From Minisyncoccota bacterium (GTDB taxonomy: Bacteria > Patescibacteriota > Minisyncoccia > Phycocordibacterales > UBA2100), in assembly GCA_965267345.1 (NCBI GenBank), contig OZ253947.1, positions 398,665 to 462,664 on the forward strand: a stretch of 64,000 nt of DNA. Direction: 5' to 3'. Below the pieces are notes generated by a model. The model saw only the letters and a program-made list of their open reading frames with translations, had not been told where the DNA came from and did not search any database. This document shows positions 3,619 through 50,654 of this stretch, piece after piece. Each line of letters opens with the position of its first letter. Positions within the stretch are counted from its first letter, which is position 1. A program made the position numbers and the translations under genes.

Positions 3619-6120
3619 CTACGCCTTATCTTCCTTTGTGAGTGTCACGATTGAGGCAATAGCATCGCCGGAACGGAGCTTCATAATGCGTACGCCCTGC
3701 GTCTGTCGCCCTTGTAGCTTCAAGTCATCAATCGTTGTTCTGATGACCTGCCCGCGCTTCGAGACCGCAACGAGCTCGCCGGTGTCTGCATCGATGACGC
3801 GTGCGCCAATAAGTTCTTTTGTCTTTGGGGTGATATCAACGGTCTTGATGCCCGATCCTGCACGCTTTTGGACCTTATACTCCTTCATAGCGGTCTTCTT
3901 TCCGTACCCGGTTGCCGATACGACGAGCAGTGCGGCATCTTTCGCTCCCTTTTCCACCACACCGGCACCAATGACGGTGTCATCTTTGCCGAGCTTGATA
4001 CCGCGCACACCTGCAGCGGTGCGTCCCATCTCACGTGTATCGGCTTCAGTGAATCGAACCGCCTGACCGTTTTTGGTGATCAAAACGATGTCGTCACCCT
4101 TGGCAACAAAATGTGCTGAAATGAGTCGGTCACCGCCGGTGAGCTTGATAGCAATAAGGCCACTACGACGCACATCAAAGAATTGCGGTGCCGCTGTTTT
4201 CTTCACCGTTCCCTCGCGCGTCACCATTAACAGTGAGAGCTCTTCTGCATCTTTGATATCTTTCGGCATTGGTAGCACTGACGTCACTTGCTCGTCCTGC
4301 TCAAGCTGCAGGAAATTCATAATTGATTTTCCTTTTGTTGAACGCTTGCCTTCAGGAATTTCATACATCTTCGTCTGGTAGACCTTTCCTTTATCGGTAA
4401 AGAACAGTAGATCAGAGTGTGCGCTTGCGGTGAGGAATGTGGTAACTACATCTTCCTCTTTGGTATTCATATCAATGACCCCAACACCACCACGTCGCTG
4501 CGTACGATACTCGCTCGGATTCGTGCGCTTAATGTAGCCGCCGCGGGTCAGCACGAGTGCAAATGCGTCATCAGGGATGAGGTCTTCCATGGAGAAGTTC
4601 TTGGTGCCGCGCTTCATGATTTTCGTGCGGCGATCGTCACCGTACTTCTCTGCCGCCTCTTTCAGCTCTTTCTTAATTTGATTCATCAGCTTCGTCTTAC
4701 TCTTGAGAATACTCTCGAGCTCAGCGATGAGTGTTTGGAGCTCTTTCAGCTCGTCTTCAATTTTTTGTCGCTCAAGGTTCGCCAGCTTCTGCAGGCGCAT
4801 TTCGAGAATTGCCGTGGCCTGCACGTCAGAGAATTTAAAGGTCTTCATGAGTCCGGCGTGTGCTGTCGGCACGTCCTTACTCTTCTTAATGAGCGCGATC
4901 ACCTTGTCGATATTGGCGAGTGCTTTTTTCAGACCCAGCAAGATGTGCTCACGTGCACGTGCTTTGTCGAGATCAAACTGAGTGCGGCGCGTTACCACCT
5001 CAGTGCGGTGTGCAACGTACGACTCAAGCATCGACTTAAGCGGGAGTGTTTTTGGCACACCGTCAATGAGTGCCACCATGTTGTAGTGGAATGTTTCCTC
5101 AAGTTGGGTGTGCTTGTAAAGGTAATTCAGCACCGACTGCGGGTGTGCTGTTCCCTTCAGATCAATCACCACACGAATATCGGTGGTTGATTCGTCACGA
5201 AGCCCTTTAATACCTTCGAGCTTCTTCTGCTGTACCAGGTCGGCAATTTTTGAAATGAGTGTTGCTTTGTTAACGCGGTATGGAATTGACGTAATGACAA
5301 TCTGGAACGTACCTTTTGCTCCTTCGACGATCTCTGCCTCACCACGCACCACCACACCACCGCGCCCGGTTGCGTATGCATGTGCAATGTCTTTCTGATT
5401 AAAGGCAACACATCCTGTTGGGAAATCAGGTCCCTGAATGTATTTGAGTAGATCCTCAGTCGTGCTCGATGGCGTATCAATCAGGTGCATGATGGCATCG
5501 GTCACCTCGCGCAGGTTGTGTGGCGGTATATTTGTTGCCATACCCACAGCAATACCCAGTGTGCCGTTGAGCAAGAGGTTCGGGAGTGCCGCCGGCAACA
5601 CGGTTGGTTCTTTGTGTGTGTTATCAAAGTTTGGGCGGAAGGTAACGGTATCTTTACCGATATCGCGCAGTAGCTCGACGGCAATGGCCGACATTTTCGC
5701 CTCTGTGTAACGGTACGCAGCTGCCGGGTCGCCATCGATGGAACCAAAGTTACCCTGTCCGATAATGAGCGGATAGCGCATCGAAAAATCCTGCGCGAGG
5801 TTGACCATCGAATCGTAGACGGCAGAGTCGCCGTGCGGGTGGTACTTACCGATTACGTCACCGACAACCGTTGCCGACTTGCGTGTCTTGGCATTCGGCG
5901 TCAGACCCGAGTTGTGCATGGCAAAGAGAATGCGACGATGCACCGGCTTCAGTCCGTCACGCACATCAGGAAGCGCACGTGAGGTAATGACACTCATCGC
6001 GTAGTTCAGATACGCTTCGCGCATCTCGCCACTAATGCCTTGGTTGATGACTCCTGCGCGAGTTACCGGCTGTACGTCATCCTTTTTTTTATCGTCATCT
6101 TTTTTCTTTCGTGCTGCCAT
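3619..6120 (-). CDS. gyrA: DNA gyrase subunit A
   Basis: 833 aa. The N-terminus reads ...[28 protein letters not shown], with the active-site Tyr region and a C-terminal beta-pinwheel repeat region. Confidence 0.93.
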
Positions 6121-7128: not shown

Positions 7129-7329
7129 ATGGCTTCAAAATGCGCGCAGGGTACGCACGCTAACGGGAGCAGTATAGCACGATTTTATTGCGTTTTAATG
7201 CAATTCCATTATAGTAGATACGCCCACGCTGGTGGGTTTTTATTAATCACACCGTACTCGTAACCCTGCGGCACACGACCCGCGGACGCACACAGGTGCA
7301 CAGACCGAGTACGCGTATGTTCAACATTT

Positions 7330-8478
7330 ATGAGTACAACACACGAAGAGGAGGTTGCTTCAGCTGGAAGCAAAAAAGACAGCCTCATGACGGCACTGAT
7401 GAACGATGTGCCGAGTGCACCCGTTGTCGGTGACGTGGTTGAAGGACCGGTTATCGATATCGACCGTGGACGCATCTATATTGATTTGCATCCGTTTGGT
7501 ACGGGTATTATTTACGGCCGTGAGTATCTCTCGGCACGTGACATTCTTAAGAACGTAAACCCTGGCGACACCATCGCCGCAAAGGTTGTTGACGTTGAAA
7601 ATGAGGACGGCTACATCGAAGTATCACTTCGCGAGGCGCGTCAGGCGCTCGTATGGGGCGAAGCTGAAGCCGCACTCAAGAACAAGACATCGCTGGAGCT
7701 TCCGGTGAAGGATGCTAACAAGGGTGGCCTTATTATTGAGTGGCAGGGCATTCAGGGATTCCTCCCTGCGTCGCAGCTTGCTGCCGAGCACTACCCGCGT
7801 GTTCCTGACGGTGACAAGGACAAAATCTACGCTGAGCTGATGCAGCTCGTCGGCGAAAAACTCTCGCTGCAAATCATTACGGCTGACGCAAAAGAGCAGA
7901 AGCTCATCTTTACCGAGAAAGGTGCTGAGGATGAAGACAAGGCAGAGCGTGTCGACAAGAAGTACCACGTTGGCGATGTGTACGAAGGTGAAGTAACCGG
8001 CGCAACTGAGTTTGGCGTCTTCGTCAAACTGGAAGACGGCCTCGAAGGCCTCGTGCACATTTCCGAAATGGACTGGGCACTCGTTGAGGATCCAAAAGCA
8101 CGCTACAAAGTGGGCGAGCATGTCCGCGTGAAAGTCATTGATGTGAAAGACGGCAAAGTCTCACTGTCGATTAAGGCGCTCATTGAAGACCCGTGGAAGG
8201 CAGCGTCTGAAACGTACAAAAAAGGTGACACGGTTGACGCTGTGGTCATCAAGTACAACAAGCACGGTGCACTGGCATCAATTGAAGAAGGCGTCGCAGG
8301 ACTCGTGCACGTGTCTGAGTTCGGCTCAAGTGATGCACTTCGCGAAACACTCAACCTTGGTGGTTCATACACCTTTGTCATCACGCTCTTTGAGCCTGAT
8401 GACCACAAAATGACGCTCTCATATACAGAAGCACACGGCGGTACACCGGCTGCTGATAAAAAAGAAGCTGACGCGTAA
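7330..8478 (+). CDS. rpsA: 30S ribosomal protein S1-like, with four S1 RNA-binding domains
   Basis: Repeated S1 OB-fold motifs (GDVVEGPV..., GDVYEGEVTG..FGVFV, GEHVRVKVIDV, GDTVDAVVIKY...GLVHVSE). The start could be 7387. Confidence 0.75.
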   Translation: MSTTHEEEVASAGSKKDSLMTALMNDVPSAPVVGDVVEGPVIDIDRGRIYIDLHPFGTGIIYGREYLSARDILKNVNPGDTIAAKVVDVENEDGYIEVSLREARQALVWGEAEAALKNKTSLELPVKDANKGGLIIEWQGIQGFLPASQLAAEHYPRVPDGDKDKIYAELMQLVGEKLSLQIITADAKEQKLIFTEKGAEDEDKAERVDKKYHVGDVYEGEVTGATEFGVFVKLEDGLEGLVHISEMDWALVEDPKARYKVGEHVRVKVIDVKDGKVSLSIKALIEDPWKAASETYKKGDTVDAVVIKYNKHGALASIEEGVAGLVHVSEFGSSDALRETLNLGGSYTFVITLFEPDDHKMTLSYTEAHGGTPAADKKEADA

Positions 8479-23234: not shown

Positions 23235-23361
23235 CTCGTTTGTACGTAACTATCTACACGTCCATACCTGCGATTCGAAAAGATGTTTTACTGCACGAGG
23301 ACCGCCCTTACGCAAACCTCTGATACAAGGTCGGTCCTTGTTCTGCTTGCAGGGTGTTTCG

Positions 23362-23387
23362 TACCTACTGAGATATCTCAGTAGGTA
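23362..23387. promoter_or_regulatory. 26-bp perfect palindrome (tacctactgagat|atctcagtaggta) just upstream of a TGTTATACT extended -10 in front of tsaD
   Basis: Perfect dyad symmetry, read from the sequence. Located 25 nt upstream of TGtTATACT at 23412-23420. Confidence 0.4.
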
Positions 23388-23458
23388 TACCAAAGTTAAT
23401 TCAAAAGTTGATGTTATACTACCCTCGCCATGACGTCTGTGCTACCGTACATCGGTAT

Positions 23459-30045: not shown

Positions 30046-30477
30046 CTAGCGCAGGCGTTCTGTGTACAGTGACAAAAATTCGGGAAATGCCGAATGCGTC
30101 GGATTCGGTATCGTATCGAGCGTACACCACTCGAGTGCGTCAAACTTATGCGGTTCCCCAATGGCAACACGCGTCGGATCAACCCGCACTTTAAAGTCGA
30201 GACCGATCCAGTGTGTTTTTGCCCCTCCATGTTCGCGGTGCACATCACGGAACCCTAAGAATTCGTAGTCGATCACTTCAGTACAGTACTCTTCTTGTAT
30301 TTCTTTCCGCAGCGTATCTTCAACCGATTCACCGTGCTCAAGTCCACCGCTGCCAATATCCCAACAGCCATGCTCATCGCGACACTGCGCACTGCGCTTT
30401 GCCATGAGAAACTTCCCGTTTCCATCGTGACAGAAAAAGACAACTGAAACCCCCGTGTAATCTTCACCCTTTTTCAC
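30046..30477 (-). CDS. NUDIX hydrolase
   Basis: Nudix box GGLEHGESVEDTLRKEIQEEY. Confidence 0.85.
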   Translation of the reverse strand: MKKGEDYTGVSVVFFCHDGNGKFLMAKRSAQCRDEHGCWDIGSGGLEHGESVEDTLRKEIQEEYCTEVIDYEFLGFRDVHREHGGAKTHWIGLDFKVRVDPTRVAIGEPHKFDALEWCTLDTIPNPTHSAFPEFLSLYTERLR

Positions 30478-30491
30478 CGAATTACTATAGC

Positions 30492-30512
30492 AGTGTCCTC
30501 GGTAGGAGTCGA
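30492..30512. repeat. 21-bp direct duplicate (agtgtcctcggtaggagtcga) of the 3' end of tRNA-Arg: attachment-site-like repeat
   Basis: Identical to 30699-30719, which is the T-loop/acceptor 3' half of the tRNA. Confidence 0.7.
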
Positions 30513-30700
30513 TATCAGCTCACTACGCATTTTTATGTCTTCGGCACGCTCAGACTTAAAAATACCAAGTGGCTCCTATCCGGACTCGCCGACCCAGCCC
30601 TTCTCGAAGGGCTGGGTGCCCCGGGTCCGTCTTTCGCCTCAACCGACGACGTGTTGCTCATGGCAGCAGATGCGTCGCATCTTCTGCGTGAGCATACAAG

Positions 30701-30772
30701 TGTCCTCGGTAGGAGTCGAACCTACATTTGCCCCTTAGGAGGGGGCCGTTCTGTCCGTTGAACTACGAGGAC
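30701..30772 (-). tRNA. tRNA-Arg (anticodon CCT)
   Basis: Revcomp GTCCTCG TA GTTCAACGGACAGAAC G GCCCC CTCCTAA GGGGC AAAT GTAGGTTCGACTCCTAC CGAGGAC A. Confidence 0.85.
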
Positions 30773-31078: not shown

Positions 31079-31371
31079 ATATGTTGATTACATATTTCTA
31101 ACGGATACAGTATAGCATGCATTGGAAAGATGCAGCCCCGAAAGCGGGCATCAGCTCACTAATTCGCTTACGCTCATAAGTGGCTCCTGCCCAGGCTCGT
31201 CTTCCTCGCTCCATGTACGTCGCTCGGATATGACTCCGCCGCTCGAATCGTCGCGTTGCTCCGATATATTCGCTCTTTTCGATTCCCCACGAAAGCCAAG
31301 TAGTTGGCTTTCTCATCTCCGAGCACGCACATAAAAATACCATTGCACGCAGCGGCATTTTTATGGCGTTG

Positions 31372-31442
31372 TGCGGGATGCGAGAATCGAACTCGCGACT
31401 TAAGCTTGGGAAGCTTACGTTATGCCACTTAACTAATCCCGC
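31372..31442 (-). tRNA. tRNA-Gly (anticodon CCC)
   Basis: Revcomp GCGGGAT TA GTTAAGTGGCATAAC G TAAGC TTCCCAA GCTTA AGTC GCGAGTTCGATTCTCGC ATCCCGC A. Confidence 0.85.
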
Positions 31443-37917: not shown

Positions 37918-37995
37918 TACGCTTTCACATTAATTGATGTAGTAATGGATACAGTATAGCAAGCTTCTCCCGCGCCACGCCATGGGTACAGTGCA

Positions 37996-48317: not shown

Positions 48318-48792
48318 GAAAGCCATATTTGCCGCAGGGTGTTTCTGGGGTGTCCAGTACCACTTCGACACACACGACGGTGTCGTGTCGACCCGTGTCG
48401 GCTACACTGGCGGCTCTGTTGAGAATCCGACGTACGAACAGGTGTGTACCGGCGACACGGGACACCGCGAAGCCATTGAAGTGCTCTTCGACCCCGACGT
48501 TACTTCTTTTGAAGCACTCGCGAGGCTCTTTTTCGAAACGCACGATTTCTCGCAAGTCGGCGGCCAAGGCCCCGACATCGGCTCGCAGTACACCTCTGCG
48601 ATCTACTACACGACAGACGAGCAAAAAAAGATCGCTGAACGACTCATTGCAGAGCTTGAAACGCACGGCAAGACCGTCACGACCGACATACTCCCCGCCG
48701 AGCCGTTTTATCCGGCAGAAGACTACCACCAGAAATACTATGAAAAGACGGGTGGTGCGCCCTACTGCCACGTCTATGTTAAACAGTTTTAG
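48307..48792 (+). CDS. msrA: Peptide-methionine (S)-S-oxide reductase MsrA
   Basis: AIFAAGCFWGVQ active-site motif. The ORF begins at 48292. Confidence 0.88.
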   Translation: MKTEKAIFAAGCFWGVQYHFDTHDGVVSTRVGYTGGSVENPTYEQVCTGDTGHREAIEVLFDPDVTSFEALARLFFETHDFSQVGGQGPDIGSQYTSAIYYTTDEQKKIAERLIAELETHGKTVTTDILPAEPFYPAEDYHQKYYEKTGGAPYCHVYVKQF

Positions 48793-48793
48793 T

Positions 48794-49615
48794 ATGTACC
48801 GTGCTGCACTGCTCGTCGTTAGCATGCTCGTTCTCCCAACTACGGCACTCGCCGCATTAAATGCAGGTGTGGTCAGCGGCATCTGGTTCTCACAGCAGCC
48901 ACCGAATGCCGAGAGCGCAACGCGTATATTTACCGCCGTCCAAAACCAAAGTCAGGAAACCATCGACGGTTCCGTTGCTTTTTTAGTTGATGACGAAATT
49001 ATTGGCACCGCGGCGTTCGTTGCCGCACCGAATGAGGTGCAGTCGGTCTCAACAACCTACACATTCTCCGCCGGCACCCACCGTGTGAGTGCCTACATTA
49101 CTTCAGTCAATCAGGGCGCCGTTGCCGCTGCTGTTGTTCCTGAAGTACGCGTTGACATACCCGAACCCAGTACCAGTGACCTACCGCCGGACAATAGTGC
49201 TGCTACGCAGCCGACGCAGCGCGCTGACGCACACAATGCAATCGTGGCTGCTCGCGATACAGTGCGCGGTGTGCGTGACACCATTGCCCCACGCATGGAA
49301 TCAACCGCACAACGCGTTGAAGACTTCCGCGATACCCTACTGACACCAACGACCGCTACGAGCACCGCACCTACTGATGATACGACTACCTCGGACGAAC
49401 CCGTAAGTGCACAGCCGTTGCGGGCGCATTCGCCGCGCGAATTGGTAAATGCCTCACGCGACATTATTGCCACCGAAAATGTAGCATGGTGGCGAAAAGT
49501 ACTTGGCATCATGCTCTCTGCAGGTGCACTGCTTATTCGCTACTGGATGTGGCTCCTTATCCTCATCGTTGCCTTCGTCTTTTGGCGCATCATTCGGAAC
49601 AATAGGATTTCCTAG
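48794..49615 (+). CDS. Hypothetical secreted/membrane protein (N-terminal signal, C-terminal TM)
   Basis: ATG lies 1 nt after the msrA stop. Signal peptide MYRAALLVVSMLVLPTTALAA. C-terminal TM WLLILIVAFVFW. Thr/Ala-rich. Confidence 0.5.
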   Translation: MYRAALLVVSMLVLPTTALAALNAGVVSGIWFSQQPPNAESATRIFTAVQNQSQETIDGSVAFLVDDEIIGTAAFVAAPNEVQSVSTTYTFSAGTHRVSAYITSVNQGAVAAAVVPEVRVDIPEPSTSDLPPDNSAATQPTQRADAHNAIVAARDTVRGVRDTIAPRMESTAQRVEDFRDTLLTPTTATSTAPTDDTTTSDEPVSAQPLRAHSPRELVNASRDIIATENVAWWRKVLGIMLSAGALLIRYWMWLLILIVAFVFWRIIRNNRIS

Positions 49616-49904: not shown

Positions 49905-49989
49905 GGAGGAGTGGCCGAGTGGTTTAAGGCGCACGCCTGGAACGCGTGTTGGGGGCAACCCCTCGGAGGTTCGAATCCTCTCTCCTCCG
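49905..49989 (+). tRNA. tRNA-Ser (anticodon GGA), class II with a long variable arm
   Basis: GGAGGAG TG GCCGAGTGGTTTAAGGC GCACGC CTGGAAC GCGTG, variable arm TTGGGGGCAACCCCTC, T-arm GGAGGTTCGAATCCTCT, acceptor CTCCTCC G. Confidence 0.82.
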
Positions 49990-50168
49990 CATATGCAAAT
50001 AGGATGGCTTTTTAGGCCACCTATTTTGGATACTCATGCAGAAGGAAGCGGAGCTTCCGAAGGGATTCGAAAAGAGCGAGTATATCGGAGTGTAGCGACG
50101 ATTCGAGCGGCGGGGTCGCGTCGCTTAGTATTTTAAGGAACGACAGTGATGTAAAATACTTAGCAGAG

Positions 50169-50654
50169 GTGACCGAGTCCCTCCCTCTCCGCAAAGTAGA
50201 CACACGAGTCTGCTACAATACATTCGTGGCACACACTCGAAACAAAACACAGGCAACACAAACATCGGTACGCGACTATATTGCGTCGCTCCCCGATGAT
50301 GCACGTCGTGATGCAAAGACTCTTCTGAAGATTTTCAAAGATGCAACAGGTGCACAGCCTGTGGTGTGGGGCGCTATGGTCGGTTTTGGCAACTATCACT
50401 ACGTATACGACTCAGGACGTGAGGGCGACTTTTTCGCGACGGGCTTTGCCCTCCGCAAAAGCGGCCCCGTCGTCTACATCATGCCCGGATATACCGACTA
50501 CGCATCACTGCTTACAAAGCTCGGCCCGCATACGCTCGGAAAGTCGTGCCTCTACATCAAGCGTTTGGAAGCCATAGATGCTGACGTCCTTACAAAACTG
50601 ATCAAAACAGGCATACGCGACCTTGCAAAAAAGTATCCCGTAACGATGAAATAG
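50169..50654 (+). CDS. DUF1801 (YdhG/YdeI-like) domain protein
   Basis: VRDYIASLPDDARRDAKTLLKIFKDATGAQPVVWGAMVGFGNYHY matches DUF1801. The start is uncertain: GTG at 50169, no SD. Confidence 0.55.
   Translation: MTESLPLRKVDTRVCYNTFVAHTRNKTQATQTSVRDYIASLPDDARRDAKTLLKIFKDATGAQPVVWGAMVGFGNYHYVYDSGREGDFFATGFALRKSGPVVYIMPGYTDYASLLTKLGPHTLGKSCLYIKRLEAIDADVLTKLIKTGIRDLAKKYPVTMK

Follow-up and report, generated by a model that had tools for sequence, protein, structure and literature searches.

The 57-nt core that recurs behind two transfer RNA (tRNA) genes in the 64-kb window (i.e., the entire 64,000-nt stretch of contig OZ253947.1 analysed here) is, in the reading that we hold to be somewhat probable, an internal module of miniature integrating elements of around 110-310 nt, which contain no open reading frame (ORF) and would depend on a recombinase supplied in trans. 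Inserts of this kind were found only directly 3' of tRNA and transfer-messenger RNA (tmRNA) genes, in genomes of the Kaiserbacteria clade (Candidate Phyla Radiation, CPR; Patescibacteria). They have a common layout and defined boundaries, are absent from the orthologous sites of relatives, vary in copy number, and are conserved above the neutral rate. A duplicated tRNA tail is a well-known footprint of integration; no insert of comparably small size and strong conservation has been described. A full copy starts behind an intact tRNA or tmRNA gene, often with a fresh terminator hairpin, and continues with a motif and hairpin (LEFT), the core (in one sub-family), a further hairpin module (RIGHT), and a partial copy of the tRNA 3' end beginning in the T-loop. 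The RIGHT module is common to all members, the core to the inserts behind tRNA-Gly and tRNA-Ser in the window and to the first of two elements in Patescibacteria bacterium UBA2100. According to the full-length alignment, the order of the blocks is the same in every member, with insertions and deletions.

ARAGORN detects seven tRNA genes within the window, three of which are the target genes of an insert: tRNA-Gly(CCC) at 31371-31442 (minus strand; 70.5 bits with the Rfam tRNA model), tRNA-Arg(CCT) at 30700-30772 (minus strand), and tRNA-Ser(GGA) at 49905-49990 (plus strand), the latter two equally recovered with Rfam. None of these three genes encodes CCA. The remaining four of the seven are devoid of insert modules. 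The core, located by pattern, repeat search and hidden Markov model (HMM), occupies positions 31232-31288 on the minus strand (Gly copy, 57 nt) and 50062-50117 on the plus strand (Ser copy), in both cases 3' of a tRNA gene and in the orientation of that gene, just as the initial annotation had described it. In the repeat search of the window, the pair appears as 65-nt arms (31232-31296 and 50053-50117) with 85% complementarity, and a 30-nt degenerate pattern of the core has exactly these two sites in the window, with 0.00 expected according to 100 shuffles.

The key clue, which had been missed by the initial annotation, is a direct repeat at the tRNA-Arg gene: its last 20 nt (TCGACTCCTACCGAGGACAC, 30700-30719) are perfectly repeated 207 nt downstream at 30493-30512 on the minus strand, from the TCGA of the T-loop to the acceptor end (20/20 positions; 24/26 with flanks), and no match as good occurred in 200 or in 500 shuffles. 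The 187 nt between the two tRNA-Arg 3' ends hold the RIGHT module. Behind tRNA-Ser, a decayed direct copy of the 3' end lies at 50174-50192 on the plus strand (CGAGTCCCTCCCTCTCCGC compared to CGAATCCTCTCTCCTCCGC; p = 0.006, local alignment against shuffles); the 'GAGYC' that had been noted near 50174 as part of a module following the core belongs to this decayed tRNA end. Displaced copies of the 3' end are further present in the insert of locus L061 (17/18 positions; 0/500 shuffles as good) and in loci L017 (UBA2100) and L066. All displaced copies begin at one T-loop position, (T)CGAxTCC, at or next to C56, and the same boundary can be deduced from a metagenomic protein (P0254, see below). Their state of decay differs: the displaced fragment is perfect in the Arg insert and decayed in the Ser insert and in UBA2100 element 1.

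An inverted copy of the tRNA 3' end as a feature of every insert was considered as well and dismissed; among the inserts, UBA2100 element 2 alone possesses a perfect one (21-23 nt), and such a copy is suggestive only in the Arg insert, the Ser insert and UBA2100 element 1 (p around 0.02), and elsewhere not significant. A tRNA-like fold of the displaced fragment was likewise rejected, as the 5' strand of the T-stem is missing, such that no T-arm can form. The displaced tRNA-Arg fragment overlaps a promoter-like site of the downstream NUDIX gene (30475-30512, minus strand): in the promoter scan, the -35 box TCGACT of this site is part of the fragment. As only 7 nt separate the extended -10 box of the site (TGCTATAGT, 30484-30492) from the GTG start codon at 30477, the NUDIX mRNA would be leaderless or nearly so.

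Syntenic loci, obtained through neighbouring proteins, include an empty counterpart for each of the four targets. Concerning tRNA-Gly, the closest relative (L066; LepA 85%) possesses the same tRNA-Gly(CCC) with around 55 nt to the grx promoter; concerning tRNA-Arg, the next gene follows directly in L065 and L078-81; and only a terminator is situated behind tRNA-Ser(GGA) in L070 and behind the tmRNA gene in L082, the SmpB of which is 89% identical to that of UBA2100. These empty sites in close relatives rule out a trailer signal that the tRNAs in question need. Copy number varies even among near-identical strains: of six contigs with identical LepA, one 159-nt unit of two blocks (A+B) was found in L073, L074 and L077 and two tandem units in L072 and L075. 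In the sixth, L076 (GCA_002377085.1), runs of N at 7358-7699 and 7859-8179 lie exactly at the tandem A+B array behind tRNA-Arg; since such a tandem repeat breaks short-read assembly, copy numbers in metagenome-assembled genomes are unreliable.

Two further tRNA-Arg loci are organized differently. In L066 (3941-4136), an older tRNA-Arg is present in two pieces, a 5' fragment (GCTCCTGTAGTTCAATGGACA, 3941-3961) and the corresponding 3' fragment, which sets in at the anticodon stem (4089-4136), and between them lies a complete tRNA-Arg(CCT) whose acceptor stem differs (3977-4051); the older gene appears to have been split by an insertion carrying a whole replacement tRNA gene. In L063 (8846-9137), tRNA-Arg is followed by around 290 nt of A/T-rich DNA that is unrelated to the insert family and contains an open antisense frame ending at the tRNA 3' end, and which may be the remnant of a different inserted gene.

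The core is also present outside the window to which the initial annotation was confined. The nearest named relatives of the window LepA are Candidatus Kaiserbacteria, and the scan of a genome collection yielded a single true relative of the core. This relative belongs to Patescibacteria bacterium UBA2100 (locus L017, to which L059 is identical), lies 75 nt downstream of the tmRNA gene there, and is 89% identical to the Gly copy; the tmRNA insert is 84% identical to the Ser insert over 120 nt. The SmpB of UBA2100 shares 81% identity with a Kaiserbacteria SmpB and 73% with that of a contig whose LepA equals the window LepA, which places this genome in the same clade as the window. Two inserts are arranged in tandem behind its tmRNA gene: element 1 combines core and RIGHT module with a tmRNA-end copy that has decayed, and element 2 consists of the perfect inverted copy of the tmRNA 3' end mentioned above, followed by the RIGHT module and, at its end, a decayed direct copy. 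Element 2 folds as one stem-closed structure (z = -6.2). A copy of the tmRNA 5' end within this element was rejected, given that the stretch is the exact reverse complement of the 3' end (GGAGATG) and the true 5' end reads GGGGATG. The G+C content of the UBA2100 insert is 0.45-0.56 compared to 0.28-0.44 in its surroundings. The tmRNA 3' end reads ...CTCCACAA at the occupied site of UBA2100 (L017:3490-3500) and ...CTCCACCA at the empty site of L082 (3925-3937); because the two ends differ in this way, the regenerated 3' end of UBA2100 no longer encodes CCA.

Behind tRNA-Arg, locus L061 carries a 313-nt insert with a diverged core-like stretch, the RIGHT module and the copy of the tRNA end, and L060 and L072-77 carry a 108-nt block B with the RIGHT module, flanked by a 51-nt repeat A that holds a terminator. 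A covariance model (R1) and an HMM built from six RIGHT copies were used to search 184 kb; R1 recovers the Arg copy (41.5 bits, E = 5e-9) and the Gly copy at 31141-31192 (21.9 bits, E = 0.0026), both outside its training set. The distinct RIGHT loci within the 184 kb are the three of the window, elements 1 and 2 of UBA2100, L060, L061, and the tRNA-Arg array of the L072 type. Every one of them lies directly 3' of a tRNA or tmRNA gene, and none was found elsewhere in these 184 kb.

A further independent carrier is an 11.8-kb ENA metagenome contig, which was reached through the ORF running antisense to the core. The only hit of this ORF in 1.84 billion representative proteins is P0254 (168 aa), a gene-caller artefact that represents the antisense reading of two tandem core-bearing units of around 210 nt, followed by a tRNA-Ser-like 3' end; both units restart at the same T-loop position. 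Broader pattern searches added nothing: the 19-mer GCGACGATTCGAGCGGCGG has 57 loci in public genome contigs, one of them real (UBA2100) and 56 due to chance in G+C-rich genomes; a metagenome pattern scan returned the UBA2100 sequence again and one chance match, and no new carrier; three viral pattern scans gave only chance matches inside coding regions; and the Ser insert found no match by blastn against phages and plasmids.

Concerning conservation, L060 and L073 allow a direct comparison of orthologous inserts. Third codon positions of LepA are 66% identical between them and other intergenic DNA 75-83%, whereas block A of the insert reaches 98% and block B 91.7%. All nine changes in block B fall into loops, bulges or the 3' tail, or keep the pairing, and include a double change from G-C to A-T and a change from G-C to G.U. 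Since the inserts are conserved above synonymous sites and their changes spare the structure, they are not neutral scars. The displaced tRNA copies that belong to the Ser and UBA2100 inserts have decayed to a far greater extent than the inserts, which are 84% identical; this, too, argues for a constraint on the insert itself.

The structural signal resides in the RIGHT module. Across eight distinct sequences, 87.9% of the cells are paired compared to 74.3% in shuffles (0/500), and 11 pairs change on both sides (1/500), with slid controls at 27-41%. The hairpin combines a conserved CTTAG/CTTAG stem, which contains an invariant T.T mismatch, with a variable A/T-rich middle, a tandem G.A-type internal loop and a tip of the form GAG-[stem of 2-4 bp with a GNRA-like loop]-CGAA; the sequence of the tip stem varies (C/G, CC/GG, CAC/GTG, ACAC/GTGT, TC/GA). 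As G.U-compatible and A.C cells are equally frequent (5 and 5), the folded strand cannot be told, and the structure could operate at the level of either RNA or DNA. The whole trailers of the window fold better than shuffles (z = -3.4, -4.2 and -6.3), as does block B of L072 (z = -4.1). The core alone folds no better than shuffles (z = +0.9, -1.1 and +0.3), its three copies adopt three different minimum free energy (MFE) structures, and it carries two T-loop-like (A/T)TCGA motifs. Compensatory changes across copies, proposed by the initial annotation as a check of the core, are thus found in the RIGHT module but not in the core, and the GAATCG/CGATTC stem that it had drawn for the core exists in the Gly copy, whereas the Ser copy has a T.T mismatch there and the core as a whole shows no fold beyond that of shuffles.

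A gathering-threshold scan of the window with Rfam 15 detected tRNAs only, and permissive scans of both regions gave nothing credible. Several known structures were considered and rejected. The GAG-stem-CGAA tip is reminiscent of the stem II junction of a hammerhead, but the CUGANGA box is absent, and neither a hammerhead nor another small ribozyme has an Rfam match here; GAGTCCGGATAGGAGCC resembles domain IV of the signal recognition particle RNA, again with no Rfam match; and the defining features of C/D box or K-turn RNAs, of group II intron domain 5, of IS110 bridge RNAs, of IS200/IS605-type ends, and of casposon or Tn7 homing are all absent.

In detail, the Gly insert (31120-31370, minus strand; around 250 nt, no conserved ORF; fold z = -3.4) begins right after tRNA-Gly with an A/T-rich terminator-like hairpin at 31330-31366 (CCATAAAAATGCC...GGTATTTTTATG), seen in the sequence and paired in the MFE structure, followed by the short hairpin at 31291-31314, the core, and the RIGHT module at 31150-31199 (CGAGCCTGGGCAGGAGCCACTTA-[GAGC GTAA GCGAA]-TTAGTGAGCTGAT; nhmmer E = 5.7e-10). 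In the full-length alignment it is a mosaic of a Ser-type core and an Arg-type RIGHT module. Its membership in the family follows from these shared modules together with the empty site in L066. The Arg insert (30513-30699, minus strand; 187 nt; fold z = -6.3) contains, besides the LEFT motif with its hairpin (30656-30699), a weak inverted stretch resembling a tRNA 3' end (30633-30650), a GC hairpin (30593-30616), and the RIGHT module (30513-30588; ATCAGCTCACTA...AAGTGGCTCCT), found by HMM and by R1. In the Ser insert (49991-50173, plus strand; 183 nt), a terminator hairpin (49997-50026) is followed by the LEFT motif (50026-50057), a short hairpin, GGAAGCGGAGCTTCC, precedes the core at around 50044-50058, and the core passes into a RIGHT module with a variant hairpin at 50118-50173 (GCGTCGCTTAG...CTTAGC). 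The LEFT motifs of the Arg and Ser inserts agree at 25 of 32 positions (0/300 shuffles as good). Of the parts recognized by the initial annotation, the short hairpin preceding each core is present in both copies, and the module placed behind tRNA-Arg and in the Gly trailer was recovered there by HMM and covariance model; its statement that a GAGYC..AGGAGCCACTT module follows each core applies to the Gly copy, whereas the Ser copy possesses the homologous hairpin in the variant form.

Length differences of 12, 13 and 25 nt in the RIGHT hairpin prevent any reading frame from being kept across the members, and Pfam detects nothing in the ORF translations of the inserts. An integrase or transposase is absent among the 30 window proteins scanned, all of them housekeeping proteins according to Pfam, and none occurs among the genes called around L059-L082.

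If the inserts are integrating elements, they would enter by conservative site-specific recombination with a crossover in the T-loop, a position typical of tyrosine integrases. The tRNA 3' end of the target would be replaced by one carried on the element, often together with a terminator, and would itself be displaced to the far side. Because it encodes no protein, the recombinase would have to act in trans, and the element would be non-autonomous, a miniature counterpart of a cis-mobilizable element (CIME). Through the flanking direct repeats (20 to >51 nt), an element could then be lost cleanly or amplified in tandem. The RIGHT hairpin and the core are most plausibly the element's own cis-acting sites, to be bound, double-stranded or folded, by the recombinase or by an accessory protein; a role of the two for the tRNA is unlikely. 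The initial annotation had listed relics of tRNA-targeting integrative elements among its candidates. Of the three, this candidate comes nearest to what was observed: the displaced ends, the empty sites and the four targets agree with the integrative part of that proposal, but 'relic' is too weak a term for sequences conserved above the neutral rate. The most far-reaching version, to which we attach a low probability, is that the inserts belong to previously unrecognized miniature, protein-less site-specific elements of the CPR, of which hairpin and core form the substrate of a recombinase acting in trans, possibly as folded single strands, and which retarget via the universally conserved T-loop, or else that they represent a new mobile structured RNA.

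Several points weigh against integrating elements mobilised in trans. Neither a recombinase nor a full-length relative with an integrase and the same ends was found, no circular form or attP junction was observed, and mobilisation in trans is something that we only infer. Four targets with matching 3'-end copies are awkward for a single site-specific recombinase, because a crossover in a foreign T-loop would produce a chimeric tRNA. The flanking repeats are of uneven length (around 19 to >51 nt), and the perfect repeat of L060 and L072 consists of the terminator block and not of a tRNA end; homologous recombination or tandem duplication could therefore account for part of the pattern. In the Gly insert, a displaced tRNA-Gly fragment is not detectable by local alignment against shuffles. 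The differences in copy number, taken from short-read metagenome assemblies, may partly be artefacts; the covariation comes from only about eight distinct sequences; and the high conservation of orthologous copies could reflect a function at the level of the host instead of mobility.

A rival explanation is that the inserts are genes of a structured small RNA, host-useful or selfish, located behind tRNA genes and either co-transcribed with them or ending at the next terminator; the core would then be a single-stranded functional region (seed or protein platform), the RIGHT module a scaffold, and the repeats of the tRNA end the trace of arrival. We consider this possible, though doubtful. It would account for the good folds of the whole trailers, of block B and of UBA2100 element 2, for the compensatory changes, GNRA-like loops and tandem G.A-type internal loop of the RIGHT module, for the conservation of orthologous copies far above synonymous sites, for the elevated G+C content of the UBA2100 insert, and for the position of block B in L060 and L072 between two terminator hairpins, as in a small RNA gene. 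However, the promoter scan found no promoter-like site for the inserts themselves, neither strand is favoured as the folded one, the core has neither a fold nor an Rfam relative, the closest relatives lack the insert at every site, and the genes downstream differ from site to site, which speaks against a cis-regulator. The lineage-specific small RNA of the initial annotation is in keeping with the structured and conserved modules, the core itself being unstructured, and an insertion element would have to carry it. At the opposite end, the inserts might be passive scars, i.e., remnants of the attL and attR arms of larger islands or prophages that lost their interior, together with the integrase, by deletion and that now drift neutrally. 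The variable decay of the displaced tRNA fragments, the absence of an integrase and the mosaic module content would fit such scars, decayed elements with partial tRNAs beside tRNA genes are known from tycheposon islands (10.1101/2020.12.28.424599), and CIMEs arise by decay of this type (PMC5704250). But independent deletions would not leave the same 110-300 nt in the same order at four genes and in several lineages, and neutral drift is at odds with the identity of the Ser insert and UBA2100 element 1 despite their decayed tRNA-end copies, with orthologous copies that are 92-98% identical compared to 66% at synonymous sites and whose changes all spare the structure, and with tandem amplification in near-identical strains; scars are accordingly an improbable explanation.

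The two remaining explanations place the function in the tRNA trailer or in a protein. A cis-acting signal of the tRNA 3' trailer for RNase processing, CCA maturation or termination, as the initial annotation had also considered, would agree with the position of the inserts immediately 3' of tRNA genes on the same strand, with their hairpins, and with a first core motif (GGGAWTCGAA) that is complementary, in each of three copies, to the T-loop of the gene next to it. The probability of that last match by chance is, however, around 1 in 8, a terminator-like hairpin separates the tRNA from the core in the Ser insert, in UBA2100 and apparently in the Gly insert, and both the orthologous tRNA-Gly, tRNA-Arg, tRNA-Ser and tmRNA genes of the nearest relatives and the other four tRNA genes of the window do without it; we therefore regard such a signal as very improbable. 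Even less credit can be given to a small protein encoded on the strand opposite to the tRNA (the TPPLESS...SDILALF reading). All three DNA copies keep its frame open over the core, and P0254 displays the reading twice, but every core substitution checked changes the amino acid and none of those checked is synonymous, a start codon is missing from this frame in the UBA2100 copy, P0254 continues straight through a tRNA gene in antisense, the frame is lost along the element with the differing RIGHT lengths, and neither Pfam nor the 1.84 billion representative proteins, apart from P0254, contain a match. On protein coding, which the initial annotation had called unlikely, our results thus point the same way.

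Some observations concern the remainder of the window. The trailer of tRNA-Ser(CGA) (23236-23430, plus strand) is around 190 nt long and contains two strong hairpins, and its GCGATTCGAAAAGATG (23270-23285) resembles the first 16 nt of the core. HMM and covariance model alike pass over this 16-nt look-alike, and the trailer was rejected as a fourth member; the resemblance may stem from a very decayed copy or be coincidental. At three places in the window (7161-7182, 31099-31120 and 37943-37964), there is a repeat of 22 nt (plus strand: TAACGGATACAGTATAGCATGC), which reads on the minus strand as the extended -10 box TGCTATACT followed by GTATCCGTTA. The 9-mer TGCTATACT itself occurs seven times, always on the minus strand (7171, 25287, 30027, 31109, 37953, 41552 and 52970), and the repeat is probably a strong promoter form of the lineage together with a shared 5' leader. 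Upstream of tRNA-Ser(GGA), the ORF at 48329-49615 (plus strand) has homologues of only around 260-280 aa and no Pfam domain; two of these homologues carry source names (Kaiserbacteria and Parcubacteria), and the mechanically derived length of 428 aa is too long.

Few mobile elements are known from the CPR/Patescibacteria, whose genomes are tiny (around 0.65-0.75 Mb here). If the reading as integrating elements is true, these inserts of around 200 nt, which are under structural constraint, would be the smallest integrating elements of their kind, they would have occupied the ends of tRNA and tmRNA genes repeatedly and replaced the functional 3' end of single-copy essential RNA genes, and a handle on the movement of DNA between uncultured epibionts would be available; if they are only decayed islands, the finding is an ordinary one. 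In practice, the inserts mislead gene callers (P0254) and break short-read assemblies (L076).

Among known systems, miniature inverted-repeat transposable elements (MITEs) and REPINs resemble the inserts in that they are small, non-coding and hairpin-forming, with conserved copies and a protein acting in trans. Unlike the inserts, MITEs possess terminal inverted repeats, fixed short target duplications and dispersed copies: here, the flanking repeats measure 19 to >51 nt, the terminal inverted repeats are weak (8 of 11 positions in the Arg insert), and the 64 kb contain three copies, each of them behind a tRNA gene. The integron attC site and the attP site of CTX phage form imperfect hairpins that retain their structure and particular unpaired bases despite a variable sequence. 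The invariant T.T mismatch of the RIGHT module is comparable to this, as is the ability of the inverted and direct target copies of UBA2100 element 2 to pair with each other; the inserts differ in having no R/L boxes, no link to IntI or Xer and no preferred strand, such that this is a resemblance only.

The inserts also have features in common with tRNA- and tmRNA-associated islands, alongside differences. In the parts of the Islander publication drawn on here (PMC4383910), islands are delimited by an intact tRNA gene and a displaced direct 3' fragment at their far end, and sites in the T-stem region form the largest class named (1836 of 3919 islands). A displaced direct fragment is present in the Arg, Ser and L061 inserts and in L017 and L066 but not in the Gly insert, and the boundary in the T-loop/T-stem region, the inclusion of tmRNA among the targets, the tandem arrays and the empty sites in relatives are likewise shared with such islands; an empty attB and a defined crossover sublocation are found, whereas an integrase inside the island is not. 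Genomic islands and prophages that tyrosine integrases place in tRNA or tmRNA genes are kilobases long, and islands have an integrase of their own, whereas the inserts comprise 110-310 nt with no ORF and have their conservation in hairpin modules. The tycheposons of Prochlorococcus (10.1101/2020.12.28.424599) share with the inserts the streamlined genome, the targeting of several tRNA genes and of tmRNA, and the partial tRNAs that successive integrations leave; they carry tyrosine recombinases and cargo genes, however, and nothing like the core or the RIGHT module is described for them. CIMEs are decayed integrative and conjugative or integrative and mobilizable elements (ICEs, IMEs) that have kept attL and attR and lost the genes for integration and transfer (PMC5704250). 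The inserts equally retain att-type ends with no integration or transfer genes, and both have in common the att-type repeats, the lack of a recombinase, its presumed supply in trans, and tandem accretion at the same target. CIMEs, on the other hand, are kilobase-sized, occur in Firmicutes and are mobilised by a resident ICE, whereas the inserts are miniature and have conserved, structured modules in common across targets. The inserts are thus nearest in kind to a CIME, and smaller than CIMEs or tycheposon remnants by an order of magnitude.

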